A stretch of 64,000 nucleotides of DNA, taken from an uncultured Verrucomicrobiae bacterium. GTDB taxonomy: Bacteria; Verrucomicrobiota; Verrucomicrobiia; Chthoniobacterales; JAFAMB01. The translations under genes were made by a program, and so were the position numbers. The notes under the pieces were generated by a model, which searched no databases, had not been told where the DNA came from, and saw only the letters and a list, made by a program, of their open reading frames with translations. How positions within the stretch are numbered: position 1 is the stretch's first letter; every line of letters begins with the position of its first letter. Shown here piece by piece: positions 3,016-31,600 of the stretch. The stretch spans positions 64,001 to 128,000 of the forward strand of contig CAWEXO010000009.1 of assembly GCA_963813025.1 (NCBI GenBank), given 5' to 3'.

Positions 3016-3061
3016 AGTGTCAGTGCTGCTAGTGCCAGTGTCAGTGCTAGTGCCAGTGTCA
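3016..3061. repeat. Hexamer tandem array (CAGTGT/CAGTGC/TAGTGC)
   Basis: About 7 units of YAGTGY read directly. Confidence 0.9.
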
Positions 3062-3090
3062 ACAACGTTTAAATGGCCCTGTGCCGGTAG

Positions 3091-3400
3091 ATACGGTCTT
3101 GGATGTCAAGGGCATTGGTTTAAGGAATGGCGGGCCAGGTTAGGGTTGTAGGGTTGTTGGTGAGAGAGAACACCGAAGGCGATGTGCAGGAGTTTTCGCA
3201 TGACGGCACCGCGGATAGCCAGGGAGTGGAGCTTGCGCGACTCGAGACCTGCGGCCCATTGCTGGATGGGTTTGCACCAGCGGCGAGCAACGGCGGCCGG
3301 CAAATAGAGTGCTTTGCGCAGGAAAGCGTTGCCGATTTTGCACAGGGTGGTTTTGCCGTAGAGCGAGACACCGGAACGGAATTCAGAAGGAGTCAGCCCA
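3091..3400 (-). mobile_element. IS110-family remnant (C-terminal transposase fragment plus right end), cut by IS3
   Basis: GLTPSEFRSG..GNAFLRKALYLPA..AVMRKLLHIAFGVL; stop at 3106; end TTGACATCCAAGACCGTAT-CT. Confidence 0.85.
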
Positions 3401-3443
3401 TGTACTTGCCCCGAAAAAACGGACTCGAAATATGATCGGTTGG

Positions 3444-4481
3444 TTAGCTTAGTTTCTCGTGGGTTGCAAGGCAGAAGGCTGCACTTCGGGCAAGGTCGCA
3501 ATCCGGCATAAACGGCAGCCTTCCCGCGCTTTCGCGCGGGCCCCTGCCATTTATTCCGTTTGCTCGTTTGCCCTTCGTTTCACCTTCTGCGGAAGGGGTA
3601 GCCATCACTTTTTCCTTCGAAAAAGTTGTTCTCTGTTTCTGTTGGTAAGCCGCTTCGTATTGGCGGGGCGTTTGATATCCTAACGCGCTGTGGAGACGTT
3701 TGTTGTTGTAGTAGACCTCGATGTATTCGAAGATGGTACTCCGGGCTTGAGCCTTGGAAGCGAAGCAGTTGGTCACCGGAAAACATTCGGTTTTTAACGT
3801 ACTGAAAAAGGCTTCCATCTTGGCGTTGTCATAGCAATTGCCGGCGCCACTCATGCTCTGGCAGGCTTGGATGACCTCCAGCGGTTTGCGCACTGCTTGG
3901 CTGGTATACTGACAGCCCCGATCGGTGTGAAAATATAGCCCCGGTGGTGGTTGGCGCAGCACCAGGGCGTTGTGGAGCGCTCTGACCACCAGACTGGCCT
4001 CCAGGCTCTCGGCCAGCTTCCAGCCCACCACCCGGCGACTAAAGAGGTCCAGAATAATCGCCAGATAAAGCCAGCCTTCGGCCGTCGCGACATAGGTGAT
4101 ATCACTCAGCCAAATCTGATCTGGCCCCTCGGAGACAAGCTCCGCAATCCGATTGGGTTCGGCCTCTTGGCCAGCCACGGTTGTCCGGGGACGAAAAGCA
4201 CGTTTTTTCCGAGCCATCAGCTTCTGCTCCCGCATGAGCCGAGCGACCCGATTCTTCCCCACTCGCCGGCCGGCAGCGCGCAAAGCCAAGGTGACTCGTG
4301 GACTGCCGTAACGTTGCTCATTTTGCGCGAAGATTTCCTGAATCTCGCTGAGCAATTGAGCTTCTGCTCGGGCGCGCTGGGTGACTTCCCCTTTTTTCCA
4401 CTGGTAATACCCGCTGCGCGATACCCCAAGAGCGGCGCAACTTTCCTTGAGGCCATACTGAACCGAGAGCCCTTCAATCAT
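3444..4481 (-). CDS. IS3 OrfB DDE transposase
   Basis: YGSPRV, WLSDITYV, HTDRGCQY, GNCYDNAKMEAFFSTLKTE. Confidence 0.95.
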   Translation of the reverse strand: MIEGLSVQYGLKESCAALGVSRSGYYQWKKGEVTQRARAEAQLLSEIQEIFAQNEQRYGSPRVTLALRAAGRRVGKNRVARLMREQKLMARKKRAFRPRTTVAGQEAEPNRIAELVSEGPDQIWLSDITYVATAEGWLYLAIILDLFSRRVVGWKLAESLEASLVVRALHNALVLRQPPPGLYFHTDRGCQYTSQAVRKPLEVIQACQSMSGAGNCYDNAKMEAFFSTLKTECFPVTNCFASKAQARSTIFEYIEVYYNNKRLHSALGYQTPRQYEAAYQQKQRTTFSKEKVMATPSAEGETKGKRANGINGRGPRESAGRLPFMPDCDLARSAAFCLATHEKLS

Positions 4482-4810
4482 CGCATACCGGGATTCGGTT
4501 CTTCCCCCAGGATGCTCATCGCTTTTTTTAAGATTTCCCGTTGGCGTTTGAGATACTCAATCTCTTTGTGCTGCTGCCGAATCAGCTCCGCCATTTCTTC
4601 AGGACTTTTCATCTCCCCGTTGATCTCGGCGGGCACTTGCTGGCCCAGATACGCCTTTTTCCAGAGGTTTAAACTGTACGCGCTGACGTCCAGCTCCCGG
4701 GCCACTCGCCGCTGTGTTTTGCCGCTGTGGATGATCAGTTCCACCGCTTGGCGTTTGAATTCTTCCCCGTATCGACGGGCCATTTTACTCTTCTTCACGG
4801 TCTCGTTCAT
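4478..4810 (-). CDS. IS3 OrfA HTH protein
   Basis: RRYGEEFKRQAV..VARELDVS..LKRQREILKKA; A7 slippery run near 4523-4529. Confidence 0.92.
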   Translation of the reverse strand: MNETVKKSKMARRYGEEFKRQAVELIIHSGKTQRRVARELDVSAYSLNLWKKAYLGQQVPAEINGEMKSPEEMAELIRQQHKEIEYLKRQREILKKAMSILGEEPNPGMR

Positions 4811-5348
4811 TTTACTTTGAGTTCCCGTGTCCGCCAATTCGGGGGAGGTTCAGACAGGAATTCGCGTTGAATTGGTTCTTTGTTTGATGAAGCGCTTGGG
4901 CGCGCGCCTGCTGACAGAGCCTTGTGAACACGGGCTTATGTTCCAACCCTGTTTGGAACGGCCTAAGATACGGTACGGTCTTATGCAGGTGCGGCACGAG
5001 GAAGGGTGGACTAATCTACCGGACAGGTTCTACCGACCTTTGGGCGAGGCAGTTTTCCACCCTCCTCGGCCAAGTTCTTCACTTCCAGAGTTCCGCCCTT
5101 GCGGGCGGCTTTAAAAGGGAAAAAAATTTGGTGGGGCAAGGTACAAGGGCGAAAATTTATTTGAGCCGGATGCTGGAGTTGCCACCTCTAACGCCCGGCT
5201 CAAACAAGTTCTCGCCTGGCGCTCGTCCGCCAAGGCGGATCGCCCTACCGGCACAGGGCAAAGGAAGTGCGTCCACCCCTGAACCCGCGCGCCTCAAAAA
5301 AAGTAGTCGAAGCTCTAAGTCGCTCGACGCGCCGCCTGCCTCGGCGGC

Positions 5349-5366
5349 CACTAGCACTAGCACTAG
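5349..5366. repeat. (CACTAG)x3 array, continued by CACTGA x2 at 6493-6504 beyond IS630
   Basis: Read directly. Confidence 0.9.
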
Positions 5367-6491
5367 TGCCTAATTGCGTAAGTTAGTTATATGTATGGCG
5401 ACTTTCCCCTGATGTACCTGGGATTTGGTCCATTCGAAGGGAGCCGCATTGTTATTGTAGTTCTTGATGAAGGTGTCGATGGCGTTGCGCAGCTCTGCCA
5501 CGCTGGTGAAGTTTGCCCCCTGGAGGGCTTGGCGGCTCAAGATACTAAACCAGATCTCAATCTGGTTGAGCCAAGAAGCGTGGGTTGGAGTGAAATGAAA
5601 ATGCACATTGGGGTGAGCCTTCAACCAGCGATCTTGCTTTGGCTTATGGGTCGCAAGGTTGTCTAAGACCACATGAATTTCTTTGTCGAGATTTCCGGCA
5701 ACTACCTGGTTCATAAACTCCAGGAATTCCCGTCGGCGCTGGCGCCGGTAATGACCAGCCTGCACTTGGCCGCTGGCAATGTTGAGGGCGGCAAAGAGAG
5801 TGGAGGTGCCATGGCGCTTGTACTCGTGGCTAAAACCCGTCAGCGCCCTGCCATTGGGCAAGCGAATCCAACCTTGGGCTCTTTCCAGGGCTTGAATGGC
5901 TGGTTTTTCATCAATGGCCAAGATGAGCGCATTCTGGGGCGGATTGAGATAAAGACCGACAATGTCAGCGGCCTTGCGCACAAACTCCGGATCGGTGGAA
6001 ATGCACCAGCTGCGGCGCCGTTCCAATTCAATGCCTTGTTGGCGCAAAATGCGCCAGACTTGATCGGAGGAAACATCGGCCAGACTCTGCGCCAGCAGTC
6101 GCCCATTCCAGCGCCCGTAGCCCGCCGGTGGATCTTCATCCAGCAGCGCCAAGACCCGCTTGACCGTCATTTGATCATACTTGGCCGGCTTTCCACTGCG
6201 TGGCGCGTCTTCCAAGCCAGCCAGGCCTTGGCGCACAAAGCGCCGCCGCCATTTACTCACCGTCACCTCGGGAATGCGCAGGCTCTTGGCAATCGCACGT
6301 CCACTCAAGCCCGCTGCCGCCTTCAAGATAATCTGACTCCTGACCTTGAGCCGGTGTTCGACCCGTTGCGCTCGACTCCAACCCTCCAAGAGCTTGCGGT
6401 TTTCCACAGAAAGTTTGATGCGACCCGTTGCCATCCATCCAACAAATCATAATTTTTCATAAATATAAAGAACTAAAGCAACTAAGTACTA
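5364..6491 (-). mobile_element. IS630-family insertion sequence in a CTAG site
   Basis: 34-bp imperfect TIRs (26/34) TAGTGCCTAATTGCG.. and TAGTACTTAGTTGCT..; CTAG at 5363-5366 and 6489-6492. Confidence 0.93.
5370..6434 (-). CDS. IS630 transposase
   Basis: HTH, DEKPAIQAL, EYKRHGT, VLDNLATHK, SWLNQIEIWFS. Confidence 0.96.
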   Translation of the reverse strand: MATGRIKLSVENRKLLEGWSRAQRVEHRLKVRSQIILKAAAGLSGRAIAKSLRIPEVTVSKWRRRFVRQGLAGLEDAPRSGKPAKYDQMTVKRVLALLDEDPPAGYGRWNGRLLAQSLADVSSDQVWRILRQQGIELERRRSWCISTDPEFVRKAADIVGLYLNPPQNALILAIDEKPAIQALERAQGWIRLPNGRALTGFSHEYKRHGTSTLFAALNIASGQVQAGHYRRQRRREFLEFMNQVVAGNLDKEIHVVLDNLATHKPKQDRWLKAHPNVHFHFTPTHASWLNQIEIWFSILSRQALQGANFTSVAELRNAIDTFIKNYNNNAAPFEWTKSQVHQGKVAIHITNLRN

Positions 6492-6509
6492 GCACTGACA
6501 CTGACCTCC

Positions 6510-7913
6510 CTACATCCGACGTGTCAGCTTGGGCCCTTCCTTCGTGTCTTTCACATTCCAACCAAGATCCTCGATTTGTTGACGGAGCTGGTCGCTCGTT
6601 TTCCAATTCTTGTCGGCGCGGGCAGTCTCCCGCTGTTGCACCAGGAGTTGTACGGCCTGCGGTGTTGCCGATGTTTCCTCTTGCAGTTGCAGAACAGCGT
6701 TGATCCGATTCCACCAGTCAAGAAGCGCAGCCGCCTGGGAAGGAGTAAGCTGTGCATGATCCATCTCTCGGTTAGTCGCCCGGATCTGATTGAACACTTC
6801 GGCCAAGGCAGCTGAAATATTCAGGTCTTCGTCCAGCGCAGCAAAAAAAGCATCGGATTCGGCCGGCAAATACCCTCGATCAGGAATTGCCGAGCCGGCT
6901 ACTTCGCGCAAGCGCTGAAGCCACTCGTCGATCCGTTGCAGGGTCTGCCGCGACTCGACCAACCCGTCAAAAGTAAAATTAAGCGGCAGACGATAGTTTA
7001 CGCGGATGAGAGCGTACCGAACTTCCCGGCCATTGAATCCGCGCGCCAGAACATCGCGGAGAGTATAAAAATTTCCGAGTGATTTAGACATCTTTTGGCC
7101 GTCCACTACCAGATGAGCACTGTGCAGCCAATAGGAAACGAACCGCTCTTGCGTGCAAGATTCAGTCTGGGCAATCTCTGCTTCGTGGTGGGGGAAGATA
7201 TTATCGACGCCGCCACAATGAATATCGAGGTGCGGACCGAGCAGCCGGGTAGCCATCGCGCTGCACTCAATATGCCAACCGGGACGACCGCGACCCCACG
7301 GACTGTCCCAGCCCACGTTGCCATCTTCTTCGTCCCACGCTTTCCACAACGCAAAATCCCCAATCTGTTCTTTCTCGTATTCGTCGCTGCGAATCCGTCC
7401 CGAAGGGCGAAGCTCATCGAGGTTCAAGTGCGCGAGGCGCCCATAGGCGGGAAATCGGTTTATCCGGAAATAAACTGAACCGTCGTCGGCCTGATAGGCG
7501 ATATCCTGCTGTACCAGTTCTTCGATCATGGCGATCATCCGCGCGATGTTTTCGGGATCGGTCGCCGCTGGGAAATGATTCGCGGATTTGATTCGTAAAG
7601 TGTGGCAATCCTCAAAGAACGCCTGTTTGAAAGAGGCCGTAAATTGTTCCAGAGGGATTCCCGCGACGCGGCTGTTCCGGATGGTCTTGTCCTCTACATC
7701 TGTGAGATTCATGACGCGTTCGACCGCAAAGCCGCGGCTTTCCAGATGTCGCTGGAGAAGGTCCTCAAAAATATAGGTCCGGAAATTACCGATATGAGCA
7801 AACGAGTAGACGGTCGGCCCGCAGGTGTAGATTTTCACCTGGCGGCCGGCGGGATCGAGAGGCCGGAAAGCTTCGATCTGGCGCGAGTAAGTATTATGAA
7901 ATCGAATCGGCAT
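6510..7913 (-). CDS. cysS: Cysteine--tRNA ligase
   Basis: CGPTVY, HIGN, GRPGWHIECSAM, KMSKS. Confidence 0.98.
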   Translation of the reverse strand: MPIRFHNTYSRQIEAFRPLDPAGRQVKIYTCGPTVYSFAHIGNFRTYIFEDLLQRHLESRGFAVERVMNLTDVEDKTIRNSRVAGIPLEQFTASFKQAFFEDCHTLRIKSANHFPAATDPENIARMIAMIEELVQQDIAYQADDGSVYFRINRFPAYGRLAHLNLDELRPSGRIRSDEYEKEQIGDFALWKAWDEEDGNVGWDSPWGRGRPGWHIECSAMATRLLGPHLDIHCGGVDNIFPHHEAEIAQTESCTQERFVSYWLHSAHLVVDGQKMSKSLGNFYTLRDVLARGFNGREVRYALIRVNYRLPLNFTFDGLVESRQTLQRIDEWLQRLREVAGSAIPDRGYLPAESDAFFAALDEDLNISAALAEVFNQIRATNREMDHAQLTPSQAAALLDWWNRINAVLQLQEETSATPQAVQLLVQQRETARADKNWKTSDQLRQQIEDLGWNVKDTKEGPKLTRRM

Positions 7914-7983
7914 GCGTGAACGGCGGCTAATACTTAAGCACAGAAGCGAACCGGCGAGCGATGAGGATCAACAAGACGAGAAG

Positions 7984-8013
7984 CGTGAAACGCGAAACGC
8001 GGAACGTGAAACG
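7984..8013. repeat. Heptamer array CG(T/C)GAAA
   Basis: 4 units; same family at 2-33, 11354-11388, 25117-25189 and 25321-25366. Confidence 0.85.
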
Positions 8014-8019
8014 CCTCTT

Positions 8020-8535
8020 TCACACCAAAGTTGTGGGTGATTCTGGCGGAAAGGTCGGATCAACCGATTCGAGACTTACGACCGCCATCGCGGCGATGCC
8101 TTCTTTGCGCCCGATGAAACCAAGGCCTTCGTTCGTTGTCGCCTTGAGTCCAATCCGGCGGGGCGAGATCTGCAGCGTTTGCGCCAATCGTTCCCGCATG
8201 CGAGCAAGATAGGGACTGAGCTTGGGTTCCTCGGCAATCACTGACGAATCGATATTGACGATGGCCAGGCGCTTCGAGGTAAGGATGGCCTGGACTCTTT
8301 GTAAGATATCCTGACTATCCATTCCTTTGTGTCGCGGATCGGTGTTCGGAAAATGGTGACCGATATCGCGTTCACCGGCGGCTCCCAGCAGCGCATCGGC
8401 AATGGCATGACTAAGAACGTCGGCGTCAGAATGTCCATCGAGCCCCTGCACATGGGGAATATCGATTCCTCCGAGGATCAGTTTCCGTCCGGCGACCAGC
8501 CGATGAACATCGTATCCGATTCCGCATAAATTCAT
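8020..8535 (-). CDS. ispF: 2-C-methyl-D-erythritol 2,4-cyclodiphosphate synthase
   Basis: GYDVH, GHSDADV, DIGHHFP, KATTNEGLG. Confidence 0.97.
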   Translation of the reverse strand: MNLCGIGYDVHRLVAGRKLILGGIDIPHVQGLDGHSDADVLSHAIADALLGAAGERDIGHHFPNTDPRHKGMDSQDILQRVQAILTSKRLAIVNIDSSVIAEEPKLSPYLARMRERLAQTLQISPRRIGLKATTNEGLGFIGRKEGIAAMAVVSLESVDPTFPPESPTTLV

Positions 8536-8549
8536 TGTTCGTTCACCAT

Positions 8550-9308
8550 TCAATACTCGGCCGGAAGATCCAGAGAGATCTTTCCATTGGTAGCGATCAC
8601 CGCGAGTTTGTCCGCCCCCAGTTGACTGGTCCGAACCAAAACGCGACCGCCTGCTTGTTCCACCAGCAGCTTACCGGCAGCAATGTCCCACCAATTCACG
8701 CTTCGCTCGATATAGGCATCGAAACGTCCAGCCGCGACGTAAGCCAGATCGAGGGCGGCGCTCCCCATCATGCGACATTTCCTGGTGCGCCGAACCATGC
8801 TCTGGAAAACATCAATGGCCGCCTCGATGCCCACGCTGCTTTTAGCGAAGCCAATGGAAACGACAGATTCCGCGAGCTCAATGTGATCGCTCACCCGCAC
8901 CGGTGCTCCATTCAGGGTGGTTGGGCCCTCGGCGGTGACCTGCCAGAGTTCGCGGCGGATCGGATCGCAAATCACGCCCACCAGGATCTGTTCCGATCGC
9001 CGCAAAGCGATCGAAATGCAGAAATGAGGGATCCCGTAAAAATAATTCACGGTTCCATCAATCGGATCGACAACCCATTCGAACTCGCGGGACGATGAGT
9101 TGGACGAGCCTTCCTCGCCGAGGATGGCGTGGTCGGGAAACTCACTCAGAAGCAACTTGGTGATCAGTTCCTGCGAGCGGACATCCAGCTCCAGTTTGAT
9201 ATCATGCGCTTCGGCCGCATCGACTTTTAGTGGTTTTCCGAAGCTTGTCCGCAGCAGTTCACCCGCTTCCAGAGCGGCTCGAGTGGCTGCCTCGAGTTCT
9301 CTGGTCAT
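8550..9308 (-). CDS. suhB: Inositol monophosphatase family protein
   Basis: GEEG, WVVDPIDGTVNY, GSAALDLAYVAAGR, WDIAAG. Confidence 0.9.
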   Translation of the reverse strand: MTRELEAATRAALEAGELLRTSFGKPLKVDAAEAHDIKLELDVRSQELITKLLLSEFPDHAILGEEGSSNSSSREFEWVVDPIDGTVNYFYGIPHFCISIALRRSEQILVGVICDPIRRELWQVTAEGPTTLNGAPVRVSDHIELAESVVSIGFAKSSVGIEAAIDVFQSMVRRTRKCRMMGSAALDLAYVAAGRFDAYIERSVNWWDIAAGKLLVEQAGGRVLVRTSQLGADKLAVIATNGKISLDLPAEY

Positions 9309-9580
9309 AAGAGACAGCCGCCTTTTTGGCGCACGCATTGTCGCGCAATCTGCGGCAATTGGATTTGGTTCAGCTCAATCATGTACAGGCGAGCCTTGCT
9401 TGAGAATGGCGCTTCGACAACCGGAAAAAAGCCGAGCAACCACTCGATTCGAATTTAGCAATCACTAAAAAAGCTAACAACTGATCAATTTCTGATTGAC
9501 GGTGCAAACAATGTTAAGTAGTCAAGCGAATTGTAATGAATATTCTCTCCGCAACTGCGGAATGAAAGGGGGGATCACTA

Positions 9581-9691
9581 ATGCCTACGAAAAAAGCCCC
9601 GGCCAAAAAAGCTCCAGCTAAGTCGACTGCGAAAAAAGCTCCAGCCAAGAAGGTCGCGAAGAAGGCTCCGGCTAAGAAGGCTGCGAAATAG
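9581..9691 (+). CDS. 36-aa Lys/Ala/Pro-rich histone H1-like microprotein (not in ORF track)
   Basis: MPTKKAPAKKAPAKSTAKKAPAKKVAKKAPAKKAAK*; purine-rich RBS GAAAGGGGGG upstream; terminator downstream. Confidence 0.85.
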   Translation: MPTKKAPAKKAPAKSTAKKAPAKKVAKKAPAKKAAK

Positions 9692-9711
9692 TCTTTTTCA
9701 ATTGCTCTCGG

Positions 9712-9747
9712 ATAGGAGGAGATCACACGATCTCCTCCTATTTTTTT
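9712..9747 (+). terminator. Intrinsic terminator
   Basis: Perfect stem ATAGGAGGAGATC / GATCTCCTCCTAT, 4-nt loop, T7 tract. Confidence 0.9.
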
Positions 9748-9796
9748 GTCAATGCGGTAGGGCGAGAATTCAGAGACTGTCTCACAACCCCACGTT

Positions 9797-9963
9797 GGTA
9801 GGGGCAAGCTCCCGCTTGACCGGCAGTGCGCAGGCCATCTCTCGATCTGCACGAGGAGGGCCGCCTCCGCGAGGCTAGGGCGCAGCCTCCGGTCAAGCGA
9901 TTGTGGCATTCCATATCCGGGTCGCGACGAAGGCTTGTCCGTAGTCGGGAGCTCATCCCTGCC
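9797..9963. repeat. GTAG-type REP doublet (GGTAGGGGCAAGCTCCCGCTTGACC family)
   Basis: Matches the copies at 18841-18865 and 18893-18917. Confidence 0.75.
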
Positions 9964-10171
9964 GCACGCATCTTCATCGCGCCAACATGCCGAAAGCGGC
10001 TCGAAATAAATTCGAGCCTTAGCGAGAACTCGTTTGAGCCGGCCGCCGGATGGTCGTTCCCCAAAGAGCTCTCAAAGAAATTTCTCTTCATTGCCATCCC
10101 TGTACCTGCTGTCCGTGAAAATCTTGTTTTCCTGCGAGAATTTACGAGGAGCTGAACAGTTTGAAGGTTCA

Positions 10172-10229
10172 CCGGCATCCTGGGCGTGTCGGACTTTGGC
10201 TCTTGTCCCGAAGGGACATCGGGACTCAG
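10172..10229. repeat. About 58-bp dispersed repeat with a GTCCC-GAA-GGGAC hairpin
   Basis: Inverted near-identical copy at 26748-26805. Confidence 0.8.
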
Positions 10230-10369
10230 ATGACATGAGCCGATAACTAGCAGCACCCGAGCTAGGACACGGAACCAAGCAGCATCAGCTCTCAGGTCGC
10301 GGACGGGCTTTAGTCTGGCCACCACGCTGGGGCAGTGAGGCCTGCAACGCCTGGCGCGGGTTTCCCCTA

Positions 10370-10745
10370 TGATGGTGGGCACCAAGCTTTGGTGGGCGGT
10401 CTGCTGCTGATGGCGCTGCGGTCTACCAGTGGACGCCGCTCAAGCAAGCTTGCTTAAGGCATTGCCGGACGCCGCTGCACTTCCTACTGAGTTGCGCGCA
10501 AGACGGCACGGCCGGCGCTGTCCTCATGGGCTTACGTCATGGGTCCGTTGCCTGGGCTGCTGCTGGCTCTTGATGGCGGTTCTGTTCGCGGTCGGCGTGA
10601 TAACCTGATAACCTGGTCTGGATCGCCGCGCTCAGCCTGCTCGTGCTGGTGGAGAAACTCATTCCCAACGGAGTGTGGGTGGCCAAGGTGGCCGGGCTGA
10701 TCCTGATGGGCTGGGGGGCTGGATGGTCTTTTCGGGCGGAGCTTA
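10370..10745 (+). pseudogene. DUF2182-like metal-binding membrane protein fragment
   Basis: YQWTPLKQACLRHCRTPL, CLGCCWLLMAVLFAVG and LVLVEKL spread over broken frames; boundaries approximate. Confidence 0.75.
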
Positions 10746-10801
10746 GGCGCCTGGGCCAGAAACACATTGCGAGATATCCGCGAAAGTCTTCGCCCGAAAG
10801 A

Positions 10802-11338
10802 TCAGCTGGCAGAGCTGATCTTCAGGGCGCGATCGACGATGTCATCAACTGGCCATAAGCGTCCGATGCCTTCGTAACCACACGCCAGAAGGCCTTCTTC
10901 GGGCCCGATGAACTCTGCGCCGCGAGCGCGGAGGCGAGCCACGTTTTCCTGAGTCGCGGGATGCAACCACATCTTGCCATTCATGGCTGGCGCGATCAGC
11001 AGCGGAGCTTTTGTGGCCAGAGCGATCGCGGTGAGTGCGGTGTCCGCAAAACCGAAAGCGAGCTTCGCGATGATGTCGGCGGTGGCCGGCGCGATCAGCA
11101 GCAGCTGAGCGTTGTCCGCGAGCTCAATGTGACCGGGATGCCAATCGTCGCGTTCATCGAAGATGTCGGTCGTCACCGGATTACGCGAAAGGGTTTGCAG
11201 GGTGAGCGGGGTAATGAACTGAGCGGCCCCGCGGGTCATAACGATATGGAGGTCACAGCCCGCTTTCGCCAGTTTGCTCGTGAGATCGGCCGCTTTATAG
11301 GCCGCAATGGATGCTGTGATGCCAAGGACGATGTTCAC
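10802..11338 (-). CDS. coaC: Phosphopantothenoylcysteine decarboxylase (stand-alone CoaC flavoprotein domain)
   Basis: GITASIAAYKA, HIELA, APATAD, PAMN, LACG..GIGRL. Confidence 0.9.
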   Translation of the reverse strand: MNIVLGITASIAAYKAADLTSKLAKAGCDLHIVMTRGAAQFITPLTLQTLSRNPVTTDIFDERDDWHPGHIELADNAQLLLIAPATADIIAKLAFGFADTALTAIALATKAPLLIAPAMNGKMWLHPATQENVARLRARGAEFIGPEEGLLACGYEGIGRLWPVDDIVDRALKISSAS

Positions 11339-11470
11339 GGGAAAACGTTCTCCTTTTGCGTTTCACGTTTCAAGTTGCACGTTTTGCGGATGGAGCGGAA
11401 GATCGGCATCCCTGCCGGTCAAAGCAGGGGTGACAAGCAGCTAGTTAGCTTGCCGCCAAGCACCCCCAAG

Positions 11471-15629: not shown

Positions 15630-15656
15630 GAGCGGAGCTAGCTTAACAGCTGACCC

Positions 15657-15871: not shown

Positions 15872-15895
15872 CTGTTCAGCTGGTTAGCTGCCGCC

Positions 15896-18740: not shown

Positions 18741-18840
18741 ACGTTAATGGTAGGGGTATCCGCGTGCCACTGCCGGGCCTGTTCCGAGAGAAGAAAATTT
18801 ATCCGAGCATCTTTCGAAATCGCGTCAGAATACGAGGAGT

Positions 18841-18917: not shown

Positions 18918-18990
18918 GGCCTTGGGTAGATGGAGCTCTTCATCTGAAGCGAAAATTAGGCGATGGACGCGATTTTTATGGGTAGAGCGA

Positions 18991-19524: not shown

Positions 19525-19595
19525 TGAGTGAACCGGAATGGACTATTCGTTTCGAAGGCTTTGCTTGAGTTTCGAGTCCACCCGGAATGTCGCTC

Positions 19596-22757: not shown

Positions 22758-22802
22758 GTAGTGAAAAAACTAAAGCGTTTAGAAGGCCGAAAGGCTAGTT
22801 CA

Positions 22803-22838
22803 GAAGTTGCGGGAGTTGCAGGAATTCCAGGAGTTGCA
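22803..22838. repeat. Nonamer tandem array GGAGTTGCA
   Basis: 4 degenerate units. Confidence 0.7.
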
Positions 22839-23083
22839 CGGAGGCGGCGCGCTTCATCGGACGAGCCCACCAGGAGCTCCGTCAACGTAGGACAAGTTGC
22901 CAGCTTTTCAGGTCACCAAAGTGGAGCGGATGGTCGTGTCGGACGTTGGTTCATGTCCCTTTGGGACCGGGAAAGTCAAAGTCCTACACCAGCCTTCCCG
23001 CCGGTCCGGAAAGCTGACAAGCTGGAAGCTTAGGTTACTCCTCCAGGGCAAAATGCTAATGACCTTAGCGCACCGCGCGCCTC

Positions 23084-24493
23084 CTACAGGTCGAAATACA
23101 TGTAAAATTCGTACGGATGCGGGCGTAGCCGAAGAGCGTCATACTCCTTTTTTTTCATGCCGATCCAGTTATCGATGAAATCCTTGTTGAAAACATCTCC
23201 CTTAGGAGGAATTCATGATCTTCTTCCATGGCCTCCATCGCTCCGACGAGCGAATCGGGCACGCTCGGCACCTTGGCCAGTTCTTCCGGTGCAAGTTCGT
23301 AAAGGTTTTTGTCGAGCGGATCGCCGGGATCAATCCGGTTTTGAATGCCGTCCAGGCCGGCAAGCAGGAGCGCGGCGAAACGCCAGGTACGGATTGGCAG
23401 CCGGATCCGGGGTACGGAACTCGACTCGTTTGGCTTTCGGGTTCGGCGAATAGGTCGGAATCCGAATGGCGGCGGACCGATTACGAGCGGAATAGGCGAG
23501 GTTAACCGGCGCTTCGAAACCAGGCACCAGACGCTTATAGCTATTCGTGGTCGGGTTGTAGATCGCGGTAAGGGCACGCGCATGTTTCAGTATCCCCCGA
23601 TATAGAACAGAGCCATTTCGCTTAGCCCGGCATATTTGTCGCCGGCAAACAGCGGTTTGCCGTCTTTCCAGAGCGATTGGTGCGTATGCATGCCCGAACC
23701 GTTGTCTCCAAAGAGCGGTTTTGGCATGAAGGTCACGACCTTGTTGTACTTCTTGGCCACATTCTTGGTGATGTACTTGTAGTACATCATGTGGTCGCCC
23801 ATCACTTTCAGCGGCGCGAACCTGATGTCGATCTCGGCCTGGCCGGCTGTGCCGACCTCGTGATGTTGCCGCTCGATCGGGCACTCCCGCCGACTCCATT
23901 TCAAGGCACATCTCGTTTCGGATATCCTGCAGCGTATCCGTTGGTGAAACCGGGAAATAGCCTTCTTTGTGACGAATCTTGTGGCCCAGGTTTGGAAACT
24001 CTTCGCGGGCTGTGTTCCAGATACCTTCCGCGCTGTCAACGCTGTGAAAGGAGCTGTTGGCGCTGTACTCGTACCGAACATCATCGAAAATAAAGAATTC
24101 CGCCTCTGGCCCAAAAAAGGCGGTATCAGCCAGACCGGTGCTTTGAGATAAGCCTCTGCTTTTTCGGCCACGCCACGCGGATCACGGTCATAAGGTTCAC
24201 GGGTGATGGGATCCTTGATCGTACAGATAAAGCTGAGGGTCGGTTCGGCATTGAAGATATCGATCCAAGCGGTTGAAGGATCAGGAATGACAAGCATGTC
24301 GCTGGCATTGATCACCTCTCCATCCGCGAATGCTCGATCCATCAAACCCAAGGCCGTCGTTGAAGATGTCCTCGCTGTATTCGTTCATGGTCGTCGTAAA
24401 GTGCTGCCAGGTTCCTAGCAGGTCGGCAAATTTGAAGTCGATGAGTTTAATACCCTTTTCTTCAATAAATCGGGATACTTCGGCTGGAGTCAT
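23084..24493 (-). CDS. glnA: Glutamine synthetase type I, with several frameshifts (probable sequence errors)
   Basis: [66 protein letters not shown] across several frames. Confidence 0.93.
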
Positions 24494-24550
24494 ATTCGTG
24501 TAACTTGAACGCTAGTTTAGGCTTTGAAGAAAGCAGGCAGCCGGCTCGTT

Positions 24551-24895
24551 TTAGATCGCCTGTTCCCCGCGTTCCTCTGTACGGATGCGGATAACTTCCA
24601 GAAGATCATGAACGAAAATCTGACCATCTCCCTTATTCCCAGTCTGTGCGCACTGCTTTATTGCAGCTACCGCGGAGCCTAGCAAATCGTTTCTTACTAT
24701 CAGTTCAACTTTCAACTTTGGAATGAAACGAGGGAGTGCAGGCGCGAATCGGCCGACATCGGTTCGAAGCGCCGGGGCTTGAACGACGAAGCCCTTTACC
24801 TCGATGACGGTCATGCCCTCGATCCCTAGCTCCGCCAACCCGGTCTTAACCTCTTCCAGCTTGAACGGTTTGATGATCGCCTCGATTTTTTTCAT
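24551..24895 (-). CDS. P-II family nitrogen regulator with a non-canonical T-loop
   Basis: MKKIEAIIKPFKLEEVK..EVKGF; TGNKGDGQIF; RIRTEERGEQAI. Confidence 0.9.
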   Translation of the reverse strand: MKKIEAIIKPFKLEEVKTGLAELGIEGMTVIEVKGFVVQAPALRTDVGRFAPALPRFIPKLKVELIVRNDLLGSAVAAIKQCAQTGNKGDGQIFVHDLLEVIRIRTEERGEQAI

Positions 24896-24920
24896 TTTGG
24901 CAACCAGAAAACCATCCCTT

Positions 24921-24967
24921 CAAAAAGGCGCGAGGAAGTGAGACTCCCTCCAAGTCCACTTCCTCGC
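24921..24967 (-). terminator. Leader hairpin followed by a T-tract upstream of PII-glnA (possible attenuator)
   Basis: GCGAGGAAGTG / CACTTCCTCGC stem followed by GCCTTTTTG on the minus strand. Confidence 0.5.
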
Positions 24968-25096
24968 AAGGTACTCGCGCATCTCGTTTTCCTGACCACT
25001 TTGATCCCTTTCATCCCTGTCAAAGTCGGCTCAAGCCCCTAAACTGATACGCGAATGTTTACATTCGGATTCCCGAATGAAGCCGCCTACTGAGTC

Positions 25097-25112
25097 AGCA
25101 CATGGTGTGCCA
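25097..25112 (-). promoter_or_regulatory. Sigma-54 (-24/-12) promoter for PII-glnA
   Basis: TGGCAC-N5-GTGCT with GG-N10-GC spacing, oriented toward the nitrogen genes. Confidence 0.65.
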
Positions 25113-25116
25113 GCCT

Positions 25117-25366
25117 GCGTTCCGCGTTCCGCGTGTCGCGTTTCACGTTTCACGTTTCACGTTTCAACATCTCGCGTGTCACGTGCCGCTTTGACTTAAC
25201 GCGGAACTTGTCGCGCCGTAGTCCCCCCGCAAATGGGGGACGGAGGCGGACGGCCAGGTCCGGATCGAAGAGGTTACCAGCGAGCCGCGCCTTCTCCAGC
25301 GAAGAGCCGATAGCGGCCGCAACTCGAAACGCGAAACGTGAAACGTGAAACGCGAAACGTGAAACG
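25117..25366. repeat. Inverted pair of heptamer arrays, (TTTCACG)n ... (CGTGAAA)n
   Basis: Arms 25117-25189 and 25321-25366. Confidence 0.88.
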
Positions 25367-25571
25367 GTGACCGATCTGTCTACAAAGCAACAATGCTGCC
25401 CGTGCAAAGCGGTCGGATTGGCGTTTTCTAGACAACCGCCTCGACGGAGAATCTGCATCGGCGAGTCATTCGAGAGCGGACGTCTGGGATCTTAGTTCCA
25501 CCCGGTTTTGTAAAGACTTTTTTGCCACTTGCCGTTGACCATAAAGGTGCCATGTATGCCAGACGATCGCT

Positions 25572-26021
25572 ATGACGCACGAAGAATTTGAGGACTTGAT
25601 CAAGGAAATACGCGAGGAGGATCCGGACCAGCTGAGTTCGGAATACCTCGTGCGCGATAACCCGTTGAAAGAAGAAGTGTTATCGCGCTTTGAGAACAAG
25701 GCTGGGTTTACCTTTCCGGAGGAGTATCGCTATTTTCTGAAGCGTTACGGCGCAGGTGAGATCGGTACCGTAACGATTTTGTCGCCGGACCCGGACAGCC
25801 AATTTGCGCTCTCCCTAAGCGACGACGATCCAAGCCGGAAAGGCGGCGTCGCTTTTGCACAGGACAGCGACGGAAATTCCTATGCATTTCTGGTCGAAAA
25901 CAACGTCTGTTCGAAAGACGTTTGGCTGGCCGAACGGAACGGACACGGCGATCTCACTTACACGGACTACGAGGATTTTTTCGAGTTTGTCGCGGAAGTC
26001 GGGTTCGGCGCGGATAGCTGA
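25572..26021 (+). CDS. SMI1/KNR4 (SUKH) family protein
   Basis: LSRFENKAGFTFPEEYRYFLKRYGAG, FAQDSDGNSYAF, DFFEFV. Confidence 0.8.
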   Translation: MTHEEFEDLIKEIREEDPDQLSSEYLVRDNPLKEEVLSRFENKAGFTFPEEYRYFLKRYGAGEIGTVTILSPDPDSQFALSLSDDDPSRKGGVAFAQDSDGNSYAFLVENNVCSKDVWLAERNGHGDLTYTDYEDFFEFVAEVGFGADS

Positions 26022-26025
26022 GCGA

Positions 26026-26430
26026 CTAATTGGAGAGATCTCTTTTCGTCGATGAGTTGCGTTTACCATCCGGGATGAGGGGGGCTCCCGCGATGATCAA
26101 CCGTCTTGCTTCTTCTGCGGTCAGCGAAGGATTGATGGCGAATAATTTAGCGGCCAGGTTCGTTACCTGAGGCGCTGCTATCGAAGTGCCGGAAGCCCGT
26201 ATTTTCTTGCCCCGGGGGATGAAACTTTCGACGTGGTATCCGTTGGCATACACGACGACAGTTTTACCATAACTGGTGAAGGTCGTAGCATCACACGCTT
26301 GATTAGTTGCTCCGACTGTAATGAGATTGCGCGAGTCCAAGGAGGCGGGCACATCTTCCAGAAACCCAGCGTCGCTGTCGGCATTTCCGGCTGCCGTAAC
26401 AAATAACGCATTGGGCGAAGCCTGCATTGC
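26026..26430 (-). pseudogene. S8 subtilase C-terminal fragment
   Basis: FVTAAGN, ITVGAT, SGTSIAAPQV; catalytic Asp/His region absent. Confidence 0.8.
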
Positions 26431-26496
26431 TTCGAGGATCCGGTGGGCGGAAGGTCCCGCTTAATACACACATCAAAAGATTGTGTAATGACGGTA

Positions 26497-26709
26497 ATGC
26501 CTCAATCACTCGCGCTCGTTTTGGTCCACGTTATCTTCTCGACCACAGACTCCGTGGTCGGTTACATCGCCAACCAGGAGATGCAGCATCACAAGATGAC
26601 CTTCCAGAAGGAGTTCCGAGCGTTTCTGAACAAACACGGCGCTCGTTTTGGTGAGCGCCATATCTGGGATCAGCGTCCGGCCGATCTGCCGCCCGTTCAG
26701 GGCGGCTGA
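26497..26709 (+). mobile_element. IS200/IS605 (Y1) TnpA remnant with an internal deletion
   Basis: MPQSLALVLVHVIFST joined directly to YIANQEMQHHKMTFQKEFRAFLNKHG; HUH segment missing. Confidence 0.8.
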
Positions 26710-26859
26710 CGAGGGAGACGATTCCCCCCGGGGTTAAAAACGCCGGGCTTAGTCCTGATGTCCCTTCGGGACAAGAAACAAAGTCCGACAGACCCAGGGT
26801 GCCGGCGCTACCTGCAAGTCCGACATGCCCGGGCTGTCCGCGCTACGCCGCTACGGCCC

Positions 26860-27876
26860 TCAAGGTGCCGGCTTGACGGCCGGTTCCATCGGCGGCGGAG
26901 AGCTGCTGGACTTCGCAGCGTGTTTTACCAGCGAGAAAAGGTCGCTGTCGGTCGAGAGGACCAGGGTAGAGTCTTCGTGAAAACCTGGTGATAGGTCTCG
27001 AGCGTCTTGAGAAAAGTATAGAATTCCGCCGCCTGCGGATTTGGTTATACGCGCGGGCGTAAATCTCCGTGGCTTTGGCGTCCGCCTCACCTCGGATTTG
27101 CTGCACTTGGCGGTAAGCATTCGACTGGATTTGGTTGAGATCGCGTTCGCGTTGGCCGGCAATGCGGGCCGATTCGCCCTCTCCCTCCGAGCGAAAACGC
27201 TGGGCGATCTGGAGCCGCTCGCTGATCATCCGTTGATAAATGCGGGCGAGGACATCAGGGTTGTAGTTTACGCGCTTGATCCGGAAATCGAGCACCTCGA
27301 TACCGAACTGAGCGAGTTTTTGCGTCGCGGCGGTTTTAATTTCGTCCTCGATCTTCTGACGACCGAACTGAATCGGTGGCAGGATGCCGATAGCGCCGGT
27401 TGCGACCACCGTGTAAACGTTTCGTCGCGCATCGGCTGGCGATCTTTGTCGGTGCGCACGATTTCGATAAGATCATGTTTGGCGATCGAGTTCCGCGTTT
27501 CGCTGCCGAGGATGTCGTCGAGGCGGGACAGAGGCGCTGCGTTCATCGTGCAAACGCACGAAATAGGTTTTCGGGTCGGCGATGCGCCAGCGCGCGAAAG
27601 CGTCCACGTGAATGTAGGTCTTGTCTCTGGTCGGGATGGCAACTGGCGCGCCGTCCCATTCCAGAAAACGCTTGTCGAGACTATTCACTTTTTGCACAAA
27701 GGGGATCTTGAAATGCAGTCCCGGCTCAGTGATGGGGCTCCCGACCGGTTGCCCAAATTGCGTGATGATCACCTGTTCGGTCTGGTCAATTGTATAGAAC
27801 GCGCCGGAGAAGACGAGGAACAGGAAAAAGCAACCGCGAGAAGTGCCGCGGTAAGAAGATAACTCTTTCTGGTCAT
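26860..27876 (-). CDS. hflC: Protease modulator HflC, frameshifted
   Basis: IITQFGQPV..PGLHFKIPFVQ, DFRIKRVN, RMISER..RSEGEGES. Confidence 0.88.
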
Positions 27877-28862
27877 GGCCGGTTTTCTCCGGGCTTGGTC
27901 GAGAGGGGGAGGACCGGCAGCAGTTGCCGAGAGACTCATCGATAACAATTTTTTGCCCAGTTTGGGGCAGGACTTCGCTCATGGTCTCTAGGTAAAGGCG
28001 GGTTCGGGTAATCTCTGGCGCTTTCGATATATTGTTGGAGCACCGCACTGAAAGCCGCGACATCACCCTCAGCTTCGTTGACCCGTTTGAAACGGTAGCC
28101 CTCCGCTGCCCGGATTGTCTGATCGGCTTCGCCTTTCGCTCTGCGGCACAACCTTGTTGTATTCGCCGTTGGCGATATTGATCGCGTTTTCGCGGTCCTG
28201 TTGAGCTTTGTTTACCTCGTTGAACGACGCTTGCACTTCGGTCGGCGGGTTCACGTTTTTCAATTGCACCTGATCGACCCGAATTCCGAGGCTGTAGCGC
28301 TTCGCCAATTCCTGCATCCGCGCGAGCGCTTCGGTTTCAATGTCCTGCCGTCCGATGGTAATCAGTTCGTCAACCGTGCGGTCGCCCACCACCTCCCTCA
28401 TCGCGGCTTCGGACAGGTCACGAAGAGTTTCCCCGGGGTTGCGCACATCGAACAAGATATTGCCTTGGGATCTTCGATGCGATATTGCACGACCCATTCG
28501 ACGAGTGCGGCATTCAGGTCACCGGTGACCATGGATTTTTCCTCGTCCGGTTCCGCGCCGGCCTGAATCGGATTTGTGGTGTAGCCGGGCGTTGAAAAGC
28601 CGAACTCGAGCTTTAACTGTCGCCGGGTCGGCAGCATGGTCACCGTGTCAATCCCAAAAGGCAGCTTGAAGTGCAGCCCCGGATCGACCGTCTGGAAATA
28701 CTTTCCAAAACGGCGCACCACGCCCTGAGACTCGGGTCCCACAGTGTAAGAAGCCGTGAGCAGCGCAATAGCCAGGAGGAGACCAAGGACAATGGTGCCA
28801 ATCCAGGCAAGCGATGGGAGCCTCAAATTCAACGGTATAGTGCGGGGATCGTAATTCGCCAC
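27873..28862 (-). CDS. hflK: FtsH protease modulator HflK, frameshifted
   Basis: VVRRFGKY..PGLHFKLPFGID, MVTGDLN, EAAMREVVG, NPPTEVQASFNEV. Confidence 0.88.
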
Positions 28863-28906
28863 AGAGGAAGGCTAGGCAGACATCCGCTTCGATTCGAGTT
28901 AAAATT

Positions 28907-28926
28907 CAGTGCCAGTGCCAGTGCCA
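28907..28926. repeat. (CAGTGC)x3 array
   Basis: Read directly; followed by GTCATTG-like units at 28952-28992. Confidence 0.8.
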
Positions 28927-29063
28927 GGAGTGGGGAGTTCAAGCACCGTCGGTCATTTGGATTGGCCATCGGTCATTGGCAGTGTCATTGGTGAAAGTAG
29001 GTGATAGCTCCTCCATCGGAAATTGCCCTTCGCAAAAATCTGCGAGAGAGTTCACCGGGAGAG

Positions 29064-29736
29064 ATGACCGGCCAAATAGACATCGAATCGAAACTCCGGG
29101 GGAGCAGCACGGCCGGGCCGAGTTCTCTCCGTTAACATCAGCGCTATTCGGACAGTCACCTCACGGGGAAGACCGGTTACCACTGGGATTTACAAGGAAC
29201 CTGTCAATGGACGCGTGCGAGTCGCTGGAGTGAACATCGAGGGCGATGATCAGGCTGATCGCAAAAATCACGGCGGCCCGCACAAAGCGGTCTATGCGTA
29301 CGCCATTGAAGACTACGAATGGTTTTCGAAACAGCAGCATCGAGCCTTTAGGCCGGGCGATTTCGGCGAGAATCTCACGATTAAGGGAGTAGACATTACA
29401 AGGGCGGTGATCGGCGAACGGTGGGTAATTGGTTCGGTCGAATTCGAAATTTCCGAGCCCAGGATTCCTTGCTATAAGCTCGGCATAAAGGTTCAAGATC
29501 CTCGTTTTCCCGCGGCTTTCGCCAAAGCGGAGCGGCCGGGAGCTTACCTGCGGATCATCCGAGAGGGGGCACTTGGAAGTGCCGATTCTGTTCGAATTCT
29601 CTCCCGACCCGACCACGGTGTCACGATTCAGGACGTTGCCGACGCGTACCTCTTCAATCACGCTTTGCTCCGCCGCCTGCTCGATGTGCCGCAGCTGCGC
29701 TCTGTTTGGCATGACCGTGCCAGGGACGCGATGTAA
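29064..29736 (+). CDS. MOSC domain protein (YiiM-like); 5' end probably frameshifted
   Basis: VTTGIYKEPV, GDDQADRKNHGGPHKAVYAY, FGENLT, PRIPCYKL; only upstream ATG (29064) is out of frame. Confidence 0.85.
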
Positions 29737-29862
29737 TACGGCGGCAGTCAGCAGAGTACGGACCAGGCCTTCCGCCTCCGTCCCCATTTCGGGGGACAAC
29801 GGTACGACAAGTTCCGCGCTGCCCGACTCGGCACCTCACGAACGCCACTAGCACTAGCACTC

Positions 29863-31254
29863 CTAAGAAACTAAATCCGTGGCTGGGTCTAGAGGCGTGA
29901 GTTGGAGTCCGAATTCTTTGGCTCGTCGGCTGAGATTGTGAAGTAGGCGGTCTTTGTATTTTTTCTCGTAGTAGAGTTGCCCTTGCTCGACATAGGCAGC
30001 TCCGAACTTGAGCATGCGATAGAACAAGCGTGCCAGTTTATGAGCTCCGGCGTTGATGGCGGTGGGTGCCCCCAATCGGGCTTTGATGCGGCGGATAAAA
30101 GCGCCGATGGCCGTCTTACTTTGCATGGCTCCTTGGGCCGCCAGCCGGAACATGGCCGCCGCGCGATTCTTGGTTTTTCTGGGGCTGGAACTGAGCAGTT
30201 TGCCGCCGCTGATGCGATTGTCCGGACAGAGTTTAAGCCAGGAGCAAAAGTGTTTTTCGCTTTTCCAACAGGTCATGTCTAAACCCGTTTCCGAAATGAT
30301 GACTTCCACCGCCAAGGTGCTCAAGCCAGGCAACTGACTCAGATCGACACCACAAACGCTGGCCAGATGCGCTCGGCGCTGCAGGGCTAGGCGAACTTGG
30401 GCCGACCGTGCTTGGGCCGCCCCGCTTTGCTCGAGGGCTTGCTCCAAATCTAGTTTAGTGTCGAATTGCTCAAGTTGTTGCTCAATCTTGCTTTCGCAGG
30501 CGGTGATCTTGAGCTGGTAGGTGTCATAGAGTTCCAGGGCCGTTTGCAAGGCGAAGAGATGCTCGGCTCGGTAATCTCCCTGTAAGGCTTTGACGATCTG
30601 ATCAGTGGATGCTTTCACTTGGGGGTGTTTCATCTGGGCAAGCTTGAGCGGATTGCGTTCTCCGGCCAAAATCGCCCGAATCATCGCCATGCCACTATAA
30701 CCGGTGATGTCGCTCAACACGCGGTGCACTTGGATATTCATTTCGGTTAAGGCCTTCTGCATGCGTAACACATGGCTGCTGCAGTCCTTAACCAAGGTGT
30801 CGCGCAGGCGCAGGAAGCTGCGCAAGACGCAGACCTCGTCCTTGGGTCGGAACGAGCCGTTTAAAAGACCAAAGGTGTGGAGTTGTTGAAGCCATTGGCA
30901 GTCCGAGACGTCGCTTTTGCGTCCAGGCAGATTCTTGACATGAGCTGCGTTGACCAATTTTACCTCCAACCCTCTCTGCTCCAGAATCTGGAACACCGGT
31001 ATCCAATAAACCCCCGTTGATTCCATCACTACGGTCTCAATGTGGTGTTCGCTCAGCCAGTCAGCCATCCGCTGCAGATCGCTCGTAAAAGGGCCAAACT
31101 TGCGCACCGTTTCTGAGCCGCGGTCTTCGGGAATGGCCACCAGGTGAAAATTCGCCCCGATATCGATTCCTGCGGCCTTGAGATTGATCCGTTCCAGAAC
31201 ACTCCGGTGAGTTTTTGATTTGTTCTTTCGCTTGGTCGTGGTTTTCTTTGCCAT
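29863..31254 (-). CDS. IS110 DEDD recombinase/transposase
   Basis: AGIDIG, VVMESTGVYW, KSDVSDCQWL, WLKLCPDNRISGGK, AHKLARLFY. Confidence 0.96.
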   Translation of the reverse strand: MAKKTTTKRKNKSKTHRSVLERINLKAAGIDIGANFHLVAIPEDRGSETVRKFGPFTSDLQRMADWLSEHHIETVVMESTGVYWIPVFQILEQRGLEVKLVNAAHVKNLPGRKSDVSDCQWLQQLHTFGLLNGSFRPKDEVCVLRSFLRLRDTLVKDCSSHVLRMQKALTEMNIQVHRVLSDITGYSGMAMIRAILAGERNPLKLAQMKHPQVKASTDQIVKALQGDYRAEHLFALQTALELYDTYQLKITACESKIEQQLEQFDTKLDLEQALEQSGAAQARSAQVRLALQRRAHLASVCGVDLSQLPGLSTLAVEVIISETGLDMTCWKSEKHFCSWLKLCPDNRISGGKLLSSSPRKTKNRAAAMFRLAAQGAMQSKTAIGAFIRRIKARLGAPTAINAGAHKLARLFYRMLKFGAAYVEQGQLYYEKKYKDRLLHNLSRRAKEFGLQLTPLDPATDLVS

Positions 31255-31299
31255 ACCTCTCTTGGGTTAGATGTTGTTCTTGCTTTCACACTGCAGCGC

Positions 31300-31460
31300 A
31301 TCGGCCCGAGTTGGTAGATAGAGAGAAATCTCCTAAACAGGATAGCTCCAGATCGGCAAACAACCCGATCTGGAGCTTCGCTAATGCAACAACCAAAACG
31401 CTCGGAACCAAACTAGCTATCGGGCATAAAGCTCCAATGCCACACCGGTCTTAACTGCCG
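31300..31460. ncRNA. Candidate IS110 bridge/seek RNA
   Basis: Junction-matching motifs CTCCTAA and AACTAGCTA, each followed by a hairpin and AATGC; strand and ends unknown. Confidence 0.55.
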
Positions 31461-31551
31461 ACCCACTGCTGCCTACTTTCTACGTCGAGATGCCCAAGGC
31501 AATCAATCCAGTGTTTCTTGCCGCAAAAAGAACGCGCAGAGTTCTGGGGAA

Positions 31552-31600
31552 CTAGCTAGCACTGGCACTGACACTGGGCACTGGCACTGGGCACTGGCAC
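31552..31600. repeat. Hexamer array (CACTGG/CACTGA), continuing CACTAG units at 29846-29861
   Basis: Read directly. Confidence 0.9.

Follow-up and report, generated by a model that had tools for sequence, protein, structure and literature searches.

What are the short, oppositely oriented repeat arrays that stand between genes in this genome, and how did they come to be there? The question is raised by a 64,000-nt stretch of contig CAWEXO010000009.1 (positions 64,001 to 128,000 of the forward strand; assembly GCA_963813025.1) from an uncultured Verrucomicrobiae bacterium, hereafter the window, in which two intergenic loci share the layout (YAGTGY)n – cargo – (RCACTR)n, with Y a pyrimidine and R a purine: locus A (3016..6504), which encloses insertion sequences (ISs), and locus B (28907..31600), which encloses a gene for a MOSC-domain protein. 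Both layouts had been described in an initial annotation and were verified in the sequence at these positions. That annotation proposed that each hexamer may be the footprint of an excised transposon, and offered as an alternative that an undescribed element of cassette type has the arrays as its ends. Our results support the second idea in a specific form: the AGTGYY arrays are probably one of several short-repeat families that bracket four-helix-bundle genes of PF05635/TIGR02436, and both pairs in the window are likely cassette relics that have lost this gene, the cassette's own cargo being the four-helix-bundle gene and not palindromic-repeat or IS DNA. The observations behind this reading are the cassette layout, a clade-specific repeat unit, a decay series, the persistence of arrays between species, passive targeting by ISs, and inversions at the arms.

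Results

AGTGYY arrays are a genome-wide, inward-facing repeat family

We scanned the genome to which the window belongs (G000; contigs C2, C3, C8, C11, C12, C14 and others) for clusters with at least three exact YAGTGY units and found 85 in 4.42 Mb, compared with none in a 2-Mb order-5 Markov simulation. The array unit is AGTG followed by two pyrimidines, with the linkers CC, CT, TC and TT occurring 85, 84, 80 and 14 times, respectively (n = 290). Gene context, taken from a home-made gene caller, placed 68 of the 85 arrays in intergenic regions, many of them abutting a start or stop codon. The orientation pairing noticed at the two window loci was borne out across the genome, since with ISs masked 17 array pairs less than 450 nt apart face inward and 1 faces outward, while 5000 label shuffles gave a mean of 4.5 inward pairs and a maximum of 11. 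The three-unit pattern was present in 7 of 41 genomes searched and abundant only in G000 and its congener, the sister species G001.

The hexamers are accompanied by several further intergenic repeat families of 6-10 nt in G000, most with the same one-way pairing. Of 81 hexamer arrays, 19 have another family stacked against their inner side and 3 against their outer side, and another repeat family occurs in 23 of 71 gaps that hold hexamers versus 199 of 2227 other gaps. The spacers are unrelated to each other apart from ISs, repetitive extragenic palindromic (REP) sequences, MITEs (miniature inverted-repeat transposable elements) and gene relics. One spacer of a different kind was seen at C8:166354-166668, where a long perfect run of GATACT hexamers lies between two AGTGYY arms and is possibly a new unit expanding by slippage.

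Four-helix-bundle genes lie between inverted arrays

PF05635 has 10 matches in G000, 7 of them over the cut-off, and all 7 of these genes are bracketed by inverted arrays of 6, 7, 9 or 10 nt, each with its own unit. The gene bracketed by AGTGYY arrays is at C12:157202; its intact cassette spans C12:157125-157609, with the PF05635/TIGR02436 open reading frame (ORF; C12:157160-157537) between the arms, and the arms pair in both the minimum free energy and the centroid RNA structures predicted for it (z -2.51). Fragments of the gene lie inside AGTGYY arrays at C11:712882, C11:715289 and C11:599723, and protein matches fall on the inner side of arrays, except at one self-complementary array that was scored both ways. 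Intact, internally deleted and gene-less copies thus coexist in G000 and form a decay series.

The layout extends beyond this genome. Among 69 loci from G000 and related genomes, 65 had both flanks, and at 54 of these (52 of 63 without two duplicates) the inverted words shared between the flanks exceeded the 99th percentile of 1000 host genes. The same threshold was exceeded at 52 of 68 four-helix-bundle loci from metagenomes, out of 79 fetched, and the cut-off for direct orientation was exceeded by only 6 loci in each set. In addition, two cyanobacterial plasmid genes show the cassette layout by eye. After removal of 6 of the 69 rows that were duplicates or fragments, the protein tree had 63 rows, and 5 of the 6 loci with a period of 6 fall in one starred clade of 6 proteins. 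Near relatives of this hexamer clade carry AGTGGYY or AGTTGYY heptamers, in a register that favoured AG starts, and the AGTGYY hexamer probably belongs to the same series, shorter by one base.

The PF05635 protein matches the structure of XCC0516 (PDB 2gsc, 5 chains; E=5e-21). A four-copy assembly was predicted with a score of 0.44 versus 0.19 for the best control, with contact agreement of at least 84% and a predicted local distance difference test value of at least 78. In calibration the mark for a pass was reached by 21 out of 30 homodimers and by none of 23 monomers, and the model may have passed through its resemblance to the solved structure.

Arrays persist between species and their arms mark local inversions

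In the sister species G001, 25 of 36 array loci are syntenic with G000; the array is present in G000 at 17 of these sites and absent from 8, some of which hold another repeat family. Where orthologous arrays persist, the number of units and the YY letters drift. Different repeat families were also seen at the same intergenic site in G001 (L204, L220 and L234) and G000 (C11:253596, C14:446252 and C14:283332, respectively), and these sites look as if arms had been swapped or the sites recolonised.

Five array pairs have interiors that can be aligned between the two species, of which three are inverted with breakpoints at the arms and two are collinear. Of the inverted interiors, one is a spacer of 96 nt (94% identity), one is a piece of 34 nt, and one is a block of 1.4 kb that contains a cassette and a host gene. 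In a test covering 1.2 of the 4.2 Mb of G001, a repeat array was present in either genome at 9 of 10 junctions of local inversions, derived from about 6 events, versus 88 of 216 collinear junctions (p=0.0025), and the same held for hexamer arrays only (5 of 10 versus 17 of 216; p=0.001). Of 57 long-range jumps, 20 had any repeat array and 9 had hexamers. The flipped genes include a folP-like gene, which has an arm-gene-arm arrangement in G001 like that of the MOSC gene in the window, and a uvrC-like gene. These findings indicate that relic arms mark local gene inversions between species.

Locus A is likely a cassette relic swollen by three ISs

The left arm of locus A consists of 7 AGTG-YY units (3016..3061, plus strand), and its outer edge is 42 nt upstream of the ATG of a GlmU-like acetyltransferase gene (2974, minus strand). 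Inward of it lies an IS110-family element (3084..5150, ends approximate; minus strand), one of about 11 related copies in the genome, which is inserted at a palindromic repeat and split by a nested IS3-family element (3401..4852, minus strand), followed by a multicopy REP-like palindromic repeat (5146..5265). The inner part of the right arm (5349..5365, minus strand) is made of RRCACT units and ends in the left TA of the target duplication of an IS630-family element of 1124 bp (5366..6489, minus strand), which is oriented such that neither of its ends matches the array unit. The outer part of this arm (6490..6504, minus strand) is 5 nt from the stop codon of cysS (6510-7913, minus strand). Without the ISs the spacer is about 220 nt, comprising the REP-like repeat and about 100 nt of other DNA, which is typical of the AGTGYY family when ISs are masked; we read locus A as a likely cassette relic that its three ISs have swollen.

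Of the five genomes compared at this gap, the two with a cysS match were G004, where cysS and the glmU-like gene are 48 nt apart, and G010, where the gap holds a related, IS-free inverted pair. Orthologues of cysS, thpR and hflK were not found in G001, which is 79% complete, with the queries used, so that no comparison of loci A and B inside the genus was possible, and when the window loci themselves served as DNA queries against G001, only repeats matched. One low-coverage DNA sequencing run contained a weak joint skipping the IS110 of locus A (27-letter side), which we do not use as evidence of excision. Near locus A, an unpaired array of AACGCGA-type heptamers lies between ispF and cysS (7976-8014), and a 27-nt tandem repeat in 3 copies, with a lysine/alanine-coding look, lies within a small ORF (9605-9688).

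Locus B places a host gene between opposed arms

The left arm of locus B has 3 AGTGCC units (28907..28926, plus strand) and is 45 nt from the start of an hflK-like ORF on the minus strand. A second-family array of GTCATYG-type heptamers is stacked on its inner side (28950..28992, limits approximate; plus strand), and the MOSC-domain gene follows (29064..29736, plus strand), with an in-frame ORF from 29215. The likely start of this gene is the upstream ATG at 29064, one base out of frame with that ORF; a related-strain contig lacks one base at 29086, and the frame break may be an assembly error. A multicopy REP-like repeat (29746..29825) separates the gene from the inner part of the right arm (29846..29861, minus strand), which ends in the CT core and is followed by a second IS110-family element of 1690 bp (29862..31551, minus strand). 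The outer part of the arm (31552..31600, minus strand) begins with the target CTAGCTAG, continues with RRCACT units of 6 and 7 nt, and is abutted by a thpR-like gene. As first noticed in the initial annotation, the right arms of both loci start GC-CACTAG-CACTAG-CACT, and an IS sits at the third CT(AG) in each, the IS630 in locus A and this IS110 in locus B.

With the IS masked, the two arms are 940 nt apart, and we predict that this host gene between two opposed arms is invertible. A related-strain contig carries 11 extra array letters at the left arm (depth 4.6, weak). No joint was found at locus B in the same low-coverage DNA run, and this too is not used as evidence regarding excision. Across all 13 relatives read, hflK has varying neighbours, and neither MOSC nor thpR is in range in any of them. 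The usual target of the locus B IS110 is CT-AGCTAG, and 10 of the 12 right flanks differ from CTAGCTAG by at most one mismatch. We rejected the idea that this element is aimed at hexamer arrays, as only 1 of 13 left ends, that of the locus B copy itself, lies in one, and guidance to a host repeat of the IS621/REP type was not seen between this IS110 and the hexamer arrays.

Other features were noted nearby. The hflK/hflC pair (26843-28862) is broken into four Band_7 fragments where relatives have open frames of about 340 amino acids, and the breaks are frameshifts, possibly from assembly indels. At 25117-25366, two CGTTTCR heptamer arrays face inward across 159 nt; the pair is a relic, without a gene, of the repeat family found on both sides of the gene at C11:287892. 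Rfam gave no match in window positions 2800-32300.

Alternative explanations

The explanation that survives best beside the cassette reading is that the arrays are host regulatory sites, that is, operators or RNA elements of local origin that are kept by selection and bound by a four-helix-bundle or nucleoid protein, with the pair around the four-helix-bundle gene reflecting autoregulation and not a mobile cassette. The intergenic position of most arrays against start or stop codons would suit such sites, as would their retention at 17 of 25 orthologous positions, and the same reading has been put forward for the paired repeats of Geobacter (PMC2700814) and for the TAACTGA repeats (PMC4679880). 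However, the gene fragments inside arrays at three further sites show that the arrays came with the gene, and 8 of the 25 orthologous sites lack the array, some with a different family in its place. Furthermore, the strand of the outer neighbouring gene is the same in 32 cases and opposite in 30, and beyond ISs, REPs, MITEs and gene relics the spacers hold no conserved sequence. We regard a regulatory origin as unlikely.

Still less probable is a mobile element that captures genes and moves accessory cargo such as MOSC, with the paired arrays as its ends. Arm-gene-arm layouts exist at the MOSC gene, at two more places in G000 and at the folP-like gene of G001, and the genes upstream of hflK and thpR differ among relatives. 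Yet at 450-1500 nt there are only 4 inward against 2 outward pairs, and the bracketed genes that can be compared stay at the same site and are only inverted. The MOSC homologues in G001 and G021 are distant (36-44%) and uninformative on transfer, and MOSC as captured cargo is unproven.

The weakest of the three is the proposal of the initial annotation that each hexamer was left behind by excision, as TA plus 4 nt from an IS630 or MITE end, and that arrays gain one unit per cycle of insertion and excision. Shigella IS630 prefers CTAG, and all 26 copies of the family found here lie at C-TA-G. The ends of these copies read GTGC on the left and GTAC, not GCAC, on the right; TA plus the left end gives TAGTGC, and 47 of 60 MITE ends read CTAGTG. 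Some arrays are pure CTAGTG runs, IS630-family elements of the sister species have similar ends, and 9 of the 26 copies lie in arrays of at least 2 units (8 in arrays of at least 3 units), although arrays hold only 160 of 4007 CTAG sites (4%). This enrichment vanishes because the arrays match the flanking target preference of IS630: when sites were weighted by the preference learned from 17 non-array insertion sites, 6.4 copies were expected in arrays versus 9 observed (P=0.17). The arrays are thus landing pads, as the initial annotation had supposed, in a passive sense and no further.

Several results speak against arrays built by excision. For 5 of the 8 array insertions, including that of locus A, a footprint from either IS end would be foreign to the array, and we found 0 foreign footprints of 2, 3 or 4 nt versus 50 native CTAGTG runs. 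TA is missing from 165 of 290 linkers in G000 and from 91 of 108 in G001, two arrays that carry an IS630 in G000 have intact counterparts without the IS in G001, only 1 of 60 MITE ends adjoins an array, and most arrays stand without an IS or MITE across the genome, which is largely the outcome that the initial annotation had named as refuting its model. The footprint would require 4 nt, whereas work on ISY100 reports a cut 2 nt inside the end, and 2-3 nt for the family (PMC2170065), a value taken from relatives of this transposase; ISY100 and the IS630/Tc1/mariner group duplicate TA at CTAG as does the locus A IS630, but the arrays here are targets, not products. Inward pairing and the 7-10-nt families of the same layout are also unexplained by this proposal, which is very improbable, and the transposon-scar reading can be dropped. 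G001 had been considered as an IS-free control, a use that was abandoned: it has no close copy of this IS630 (best 41% amino acid identity among full-length matches) but does have other IS630-family elements with similar ends. A MITE or composite transposon was likewise rejected, as the spacers are unrelated and the likeness to IS630 ends stops after 4 nt.

Two further elements of this kind were noted: a MITE family whose ends are of the TA-GTGC type and lie at CTAG sites (window 42482-42806 and, in addition, close to 33664 and 55587), and another IS that abuts CTAG sites at six ends (C2:34459, C3:34625, C8:72109, C11:503103, C11:504982 and C14:45513), one of which abuts a hexamer array.

Discussion

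Our results favour a decaying cassette as the source of the AGTGYY arrays, and the way in which it is recognised and spreads can be proposed. By analogy with the Avd pentamer of diversity-generating retroelements (DGRs), which according to the available text binds an RNA stem-loop with bases in clefts between protomers (bioRxiv 10.1101/2023.10.23.563531), an oligomeric four-helix-bundle protein may recognise its own repeat on a single strand of RNA or DNA. In line with such recognition, all 10 proteins with H or Y after SNIAEG have units without T at base 3, and T is present there in 35 of 37 others. The cassette, which has no recognisable recombinase, could reach short intergenic gaps as a copy made where repeat arms already exist, through host recombination or template switching, and this would explain the stacked arrays of different families. 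Its interior would then decay, its arms would vary by slippage, and recombination between opposed arms would flip the DNA between them. Spread by host recombination at the arms is a tentative proposal, to which we give somewhat less than an even chance.

A number of results weigh against this reading or narrow it. No remnant of a four-helix-bundle gene was detected in locus A or B, and we infer their descent from the cassette through family membership only; most arrays likewise have no such remnant beside them, and most are unpaired, with 17 close pairs among 127 arrays. The inverted-flank threshold was not reached at 11 of 65 and 16 of 68 loci. Because we found neither a mobility enzyme nor a target duplication nor any cassette copies close to identity, with G001 and G004 too diverged to serve as empty alleles, we infer rather than observe that the cassette moves. 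The residue-base pattern is not separable from kinship (1 independent pair on starred branches, giving no power), shuffled sequences fold as well as the transcript of locus B (z 0.60), and the 10 junctions of the inversion test come from roughly 6 events in one genome. Finally, IS630-family elements with TA-GTG(C/T) ends occur in G001 as well (of 5 loci read, 3 gave ends, and none of these lies in an array), and the likeness between IS end and array unit is therefore genus-wide.

The nearest known system, in the part of the literature available (PMC4990558), is the S23p intervening sequence in the 23S rRNA of Coxiella burnetii and Leptospira, in which a four-helix-bundle ORF that decays lies in the loop of an inverted-repeat stem, with short tandem heptamer repeats upstream whose number varies between strains. 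The stem-closing terminal inverted tandem repeats have their counterpart here in the folding of the intact cassette and in the 17:1 inward pairing, and the ORF between the arms is present in the C12 cassette and reduced to fragments at three relics, with no remnant in loci A and B. Unlike the intervening sequence, the arrays lie between protein-coding genes and not in the 23S rRNA gene, have a 6-nt repeat alongside families of 7-10 nt, and mostly lack an ORF.

The hepta- and octanucleotide sites of Geobacter metallireducens (classes 1-3; PMC2700814) are also similar, as they form opposite-strand pairs at variable distance, comprise several families per genome, contain inserted ISs, and are replaced by a different family at an orthologous site in a sister species. 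They differ in being read as sites for IHF/HU or a regulator, and a link to four-helix-bundle genes or inversion was not seen in the part of that paper available. The GGGAATC repeats of Xanthomonas and GGGGAYT repeats of Nostoc (PMC4692102) and the TAACTGA repeats of Beggiatoaceae (PMC4679880) resemble the arrays in being abundant intergenic short tandem repeats, conserved in position and variable in length between species, and 70 convergent inverted GGGAATC pairs are reported in Xcc (PMC4692102). In contrast to our reading, these repeats are interpreted as quadruplex or translational elements, and the accessible text of the two papers has no mention of "helix bundle", "four helix" or S23. Avd and XCC0516 share a related four-helix-bundle fold with the PF05635 protein, which nevertheless scores only 23.7 bits against the Avd model NF033474 (cut-off 80); no DGR context was seen, in an analysis that made no search aimed at one.

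We found no paper that links four-helix-bundle genes to intergenic inverted repeat arrays, in a search that lay mostly outside subscription journals and left the supplements of PMC2700814 unopened. Parts of the picture are thus already published, namely the gene-in-stem intervening sequence and the paired repeats with ISs, and the link between them was not found in the literature searched. New here are the clade with a 6-nt unit, the coexistence of seven protein-repeat pairs in a single genome, the rejection of the footprint model by test, and the inversion of host genes at relic arms.

Paired intergenic short tandem repeats have long been reported without an origin, and this genome ties them to the S23p/four-helix-bundle proteins, a family as yet without an assigned function. 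Its seven intact genes with different repeats, together with a decay series that leads to bare arms, provide a ready cross-binding matrix for the study of recognition. More speculatively, and with less confidence than in spread by host recombination, four-helix-bundle proteins might be programmable repeat readers that use a short variable loop to recognise a clade-specific unit of 6-10 nt and in this way mobilise a cassette lacking a recombinase; the arms it abandons would serve across the genome as inversion sites, flipping housekeeping genes, and as safe harbours for ISs. If true, this would explain the hexa- to decanucleotide repeats of many bacteria and would make the seven protein-repeat pairs of this genome orthogonal.

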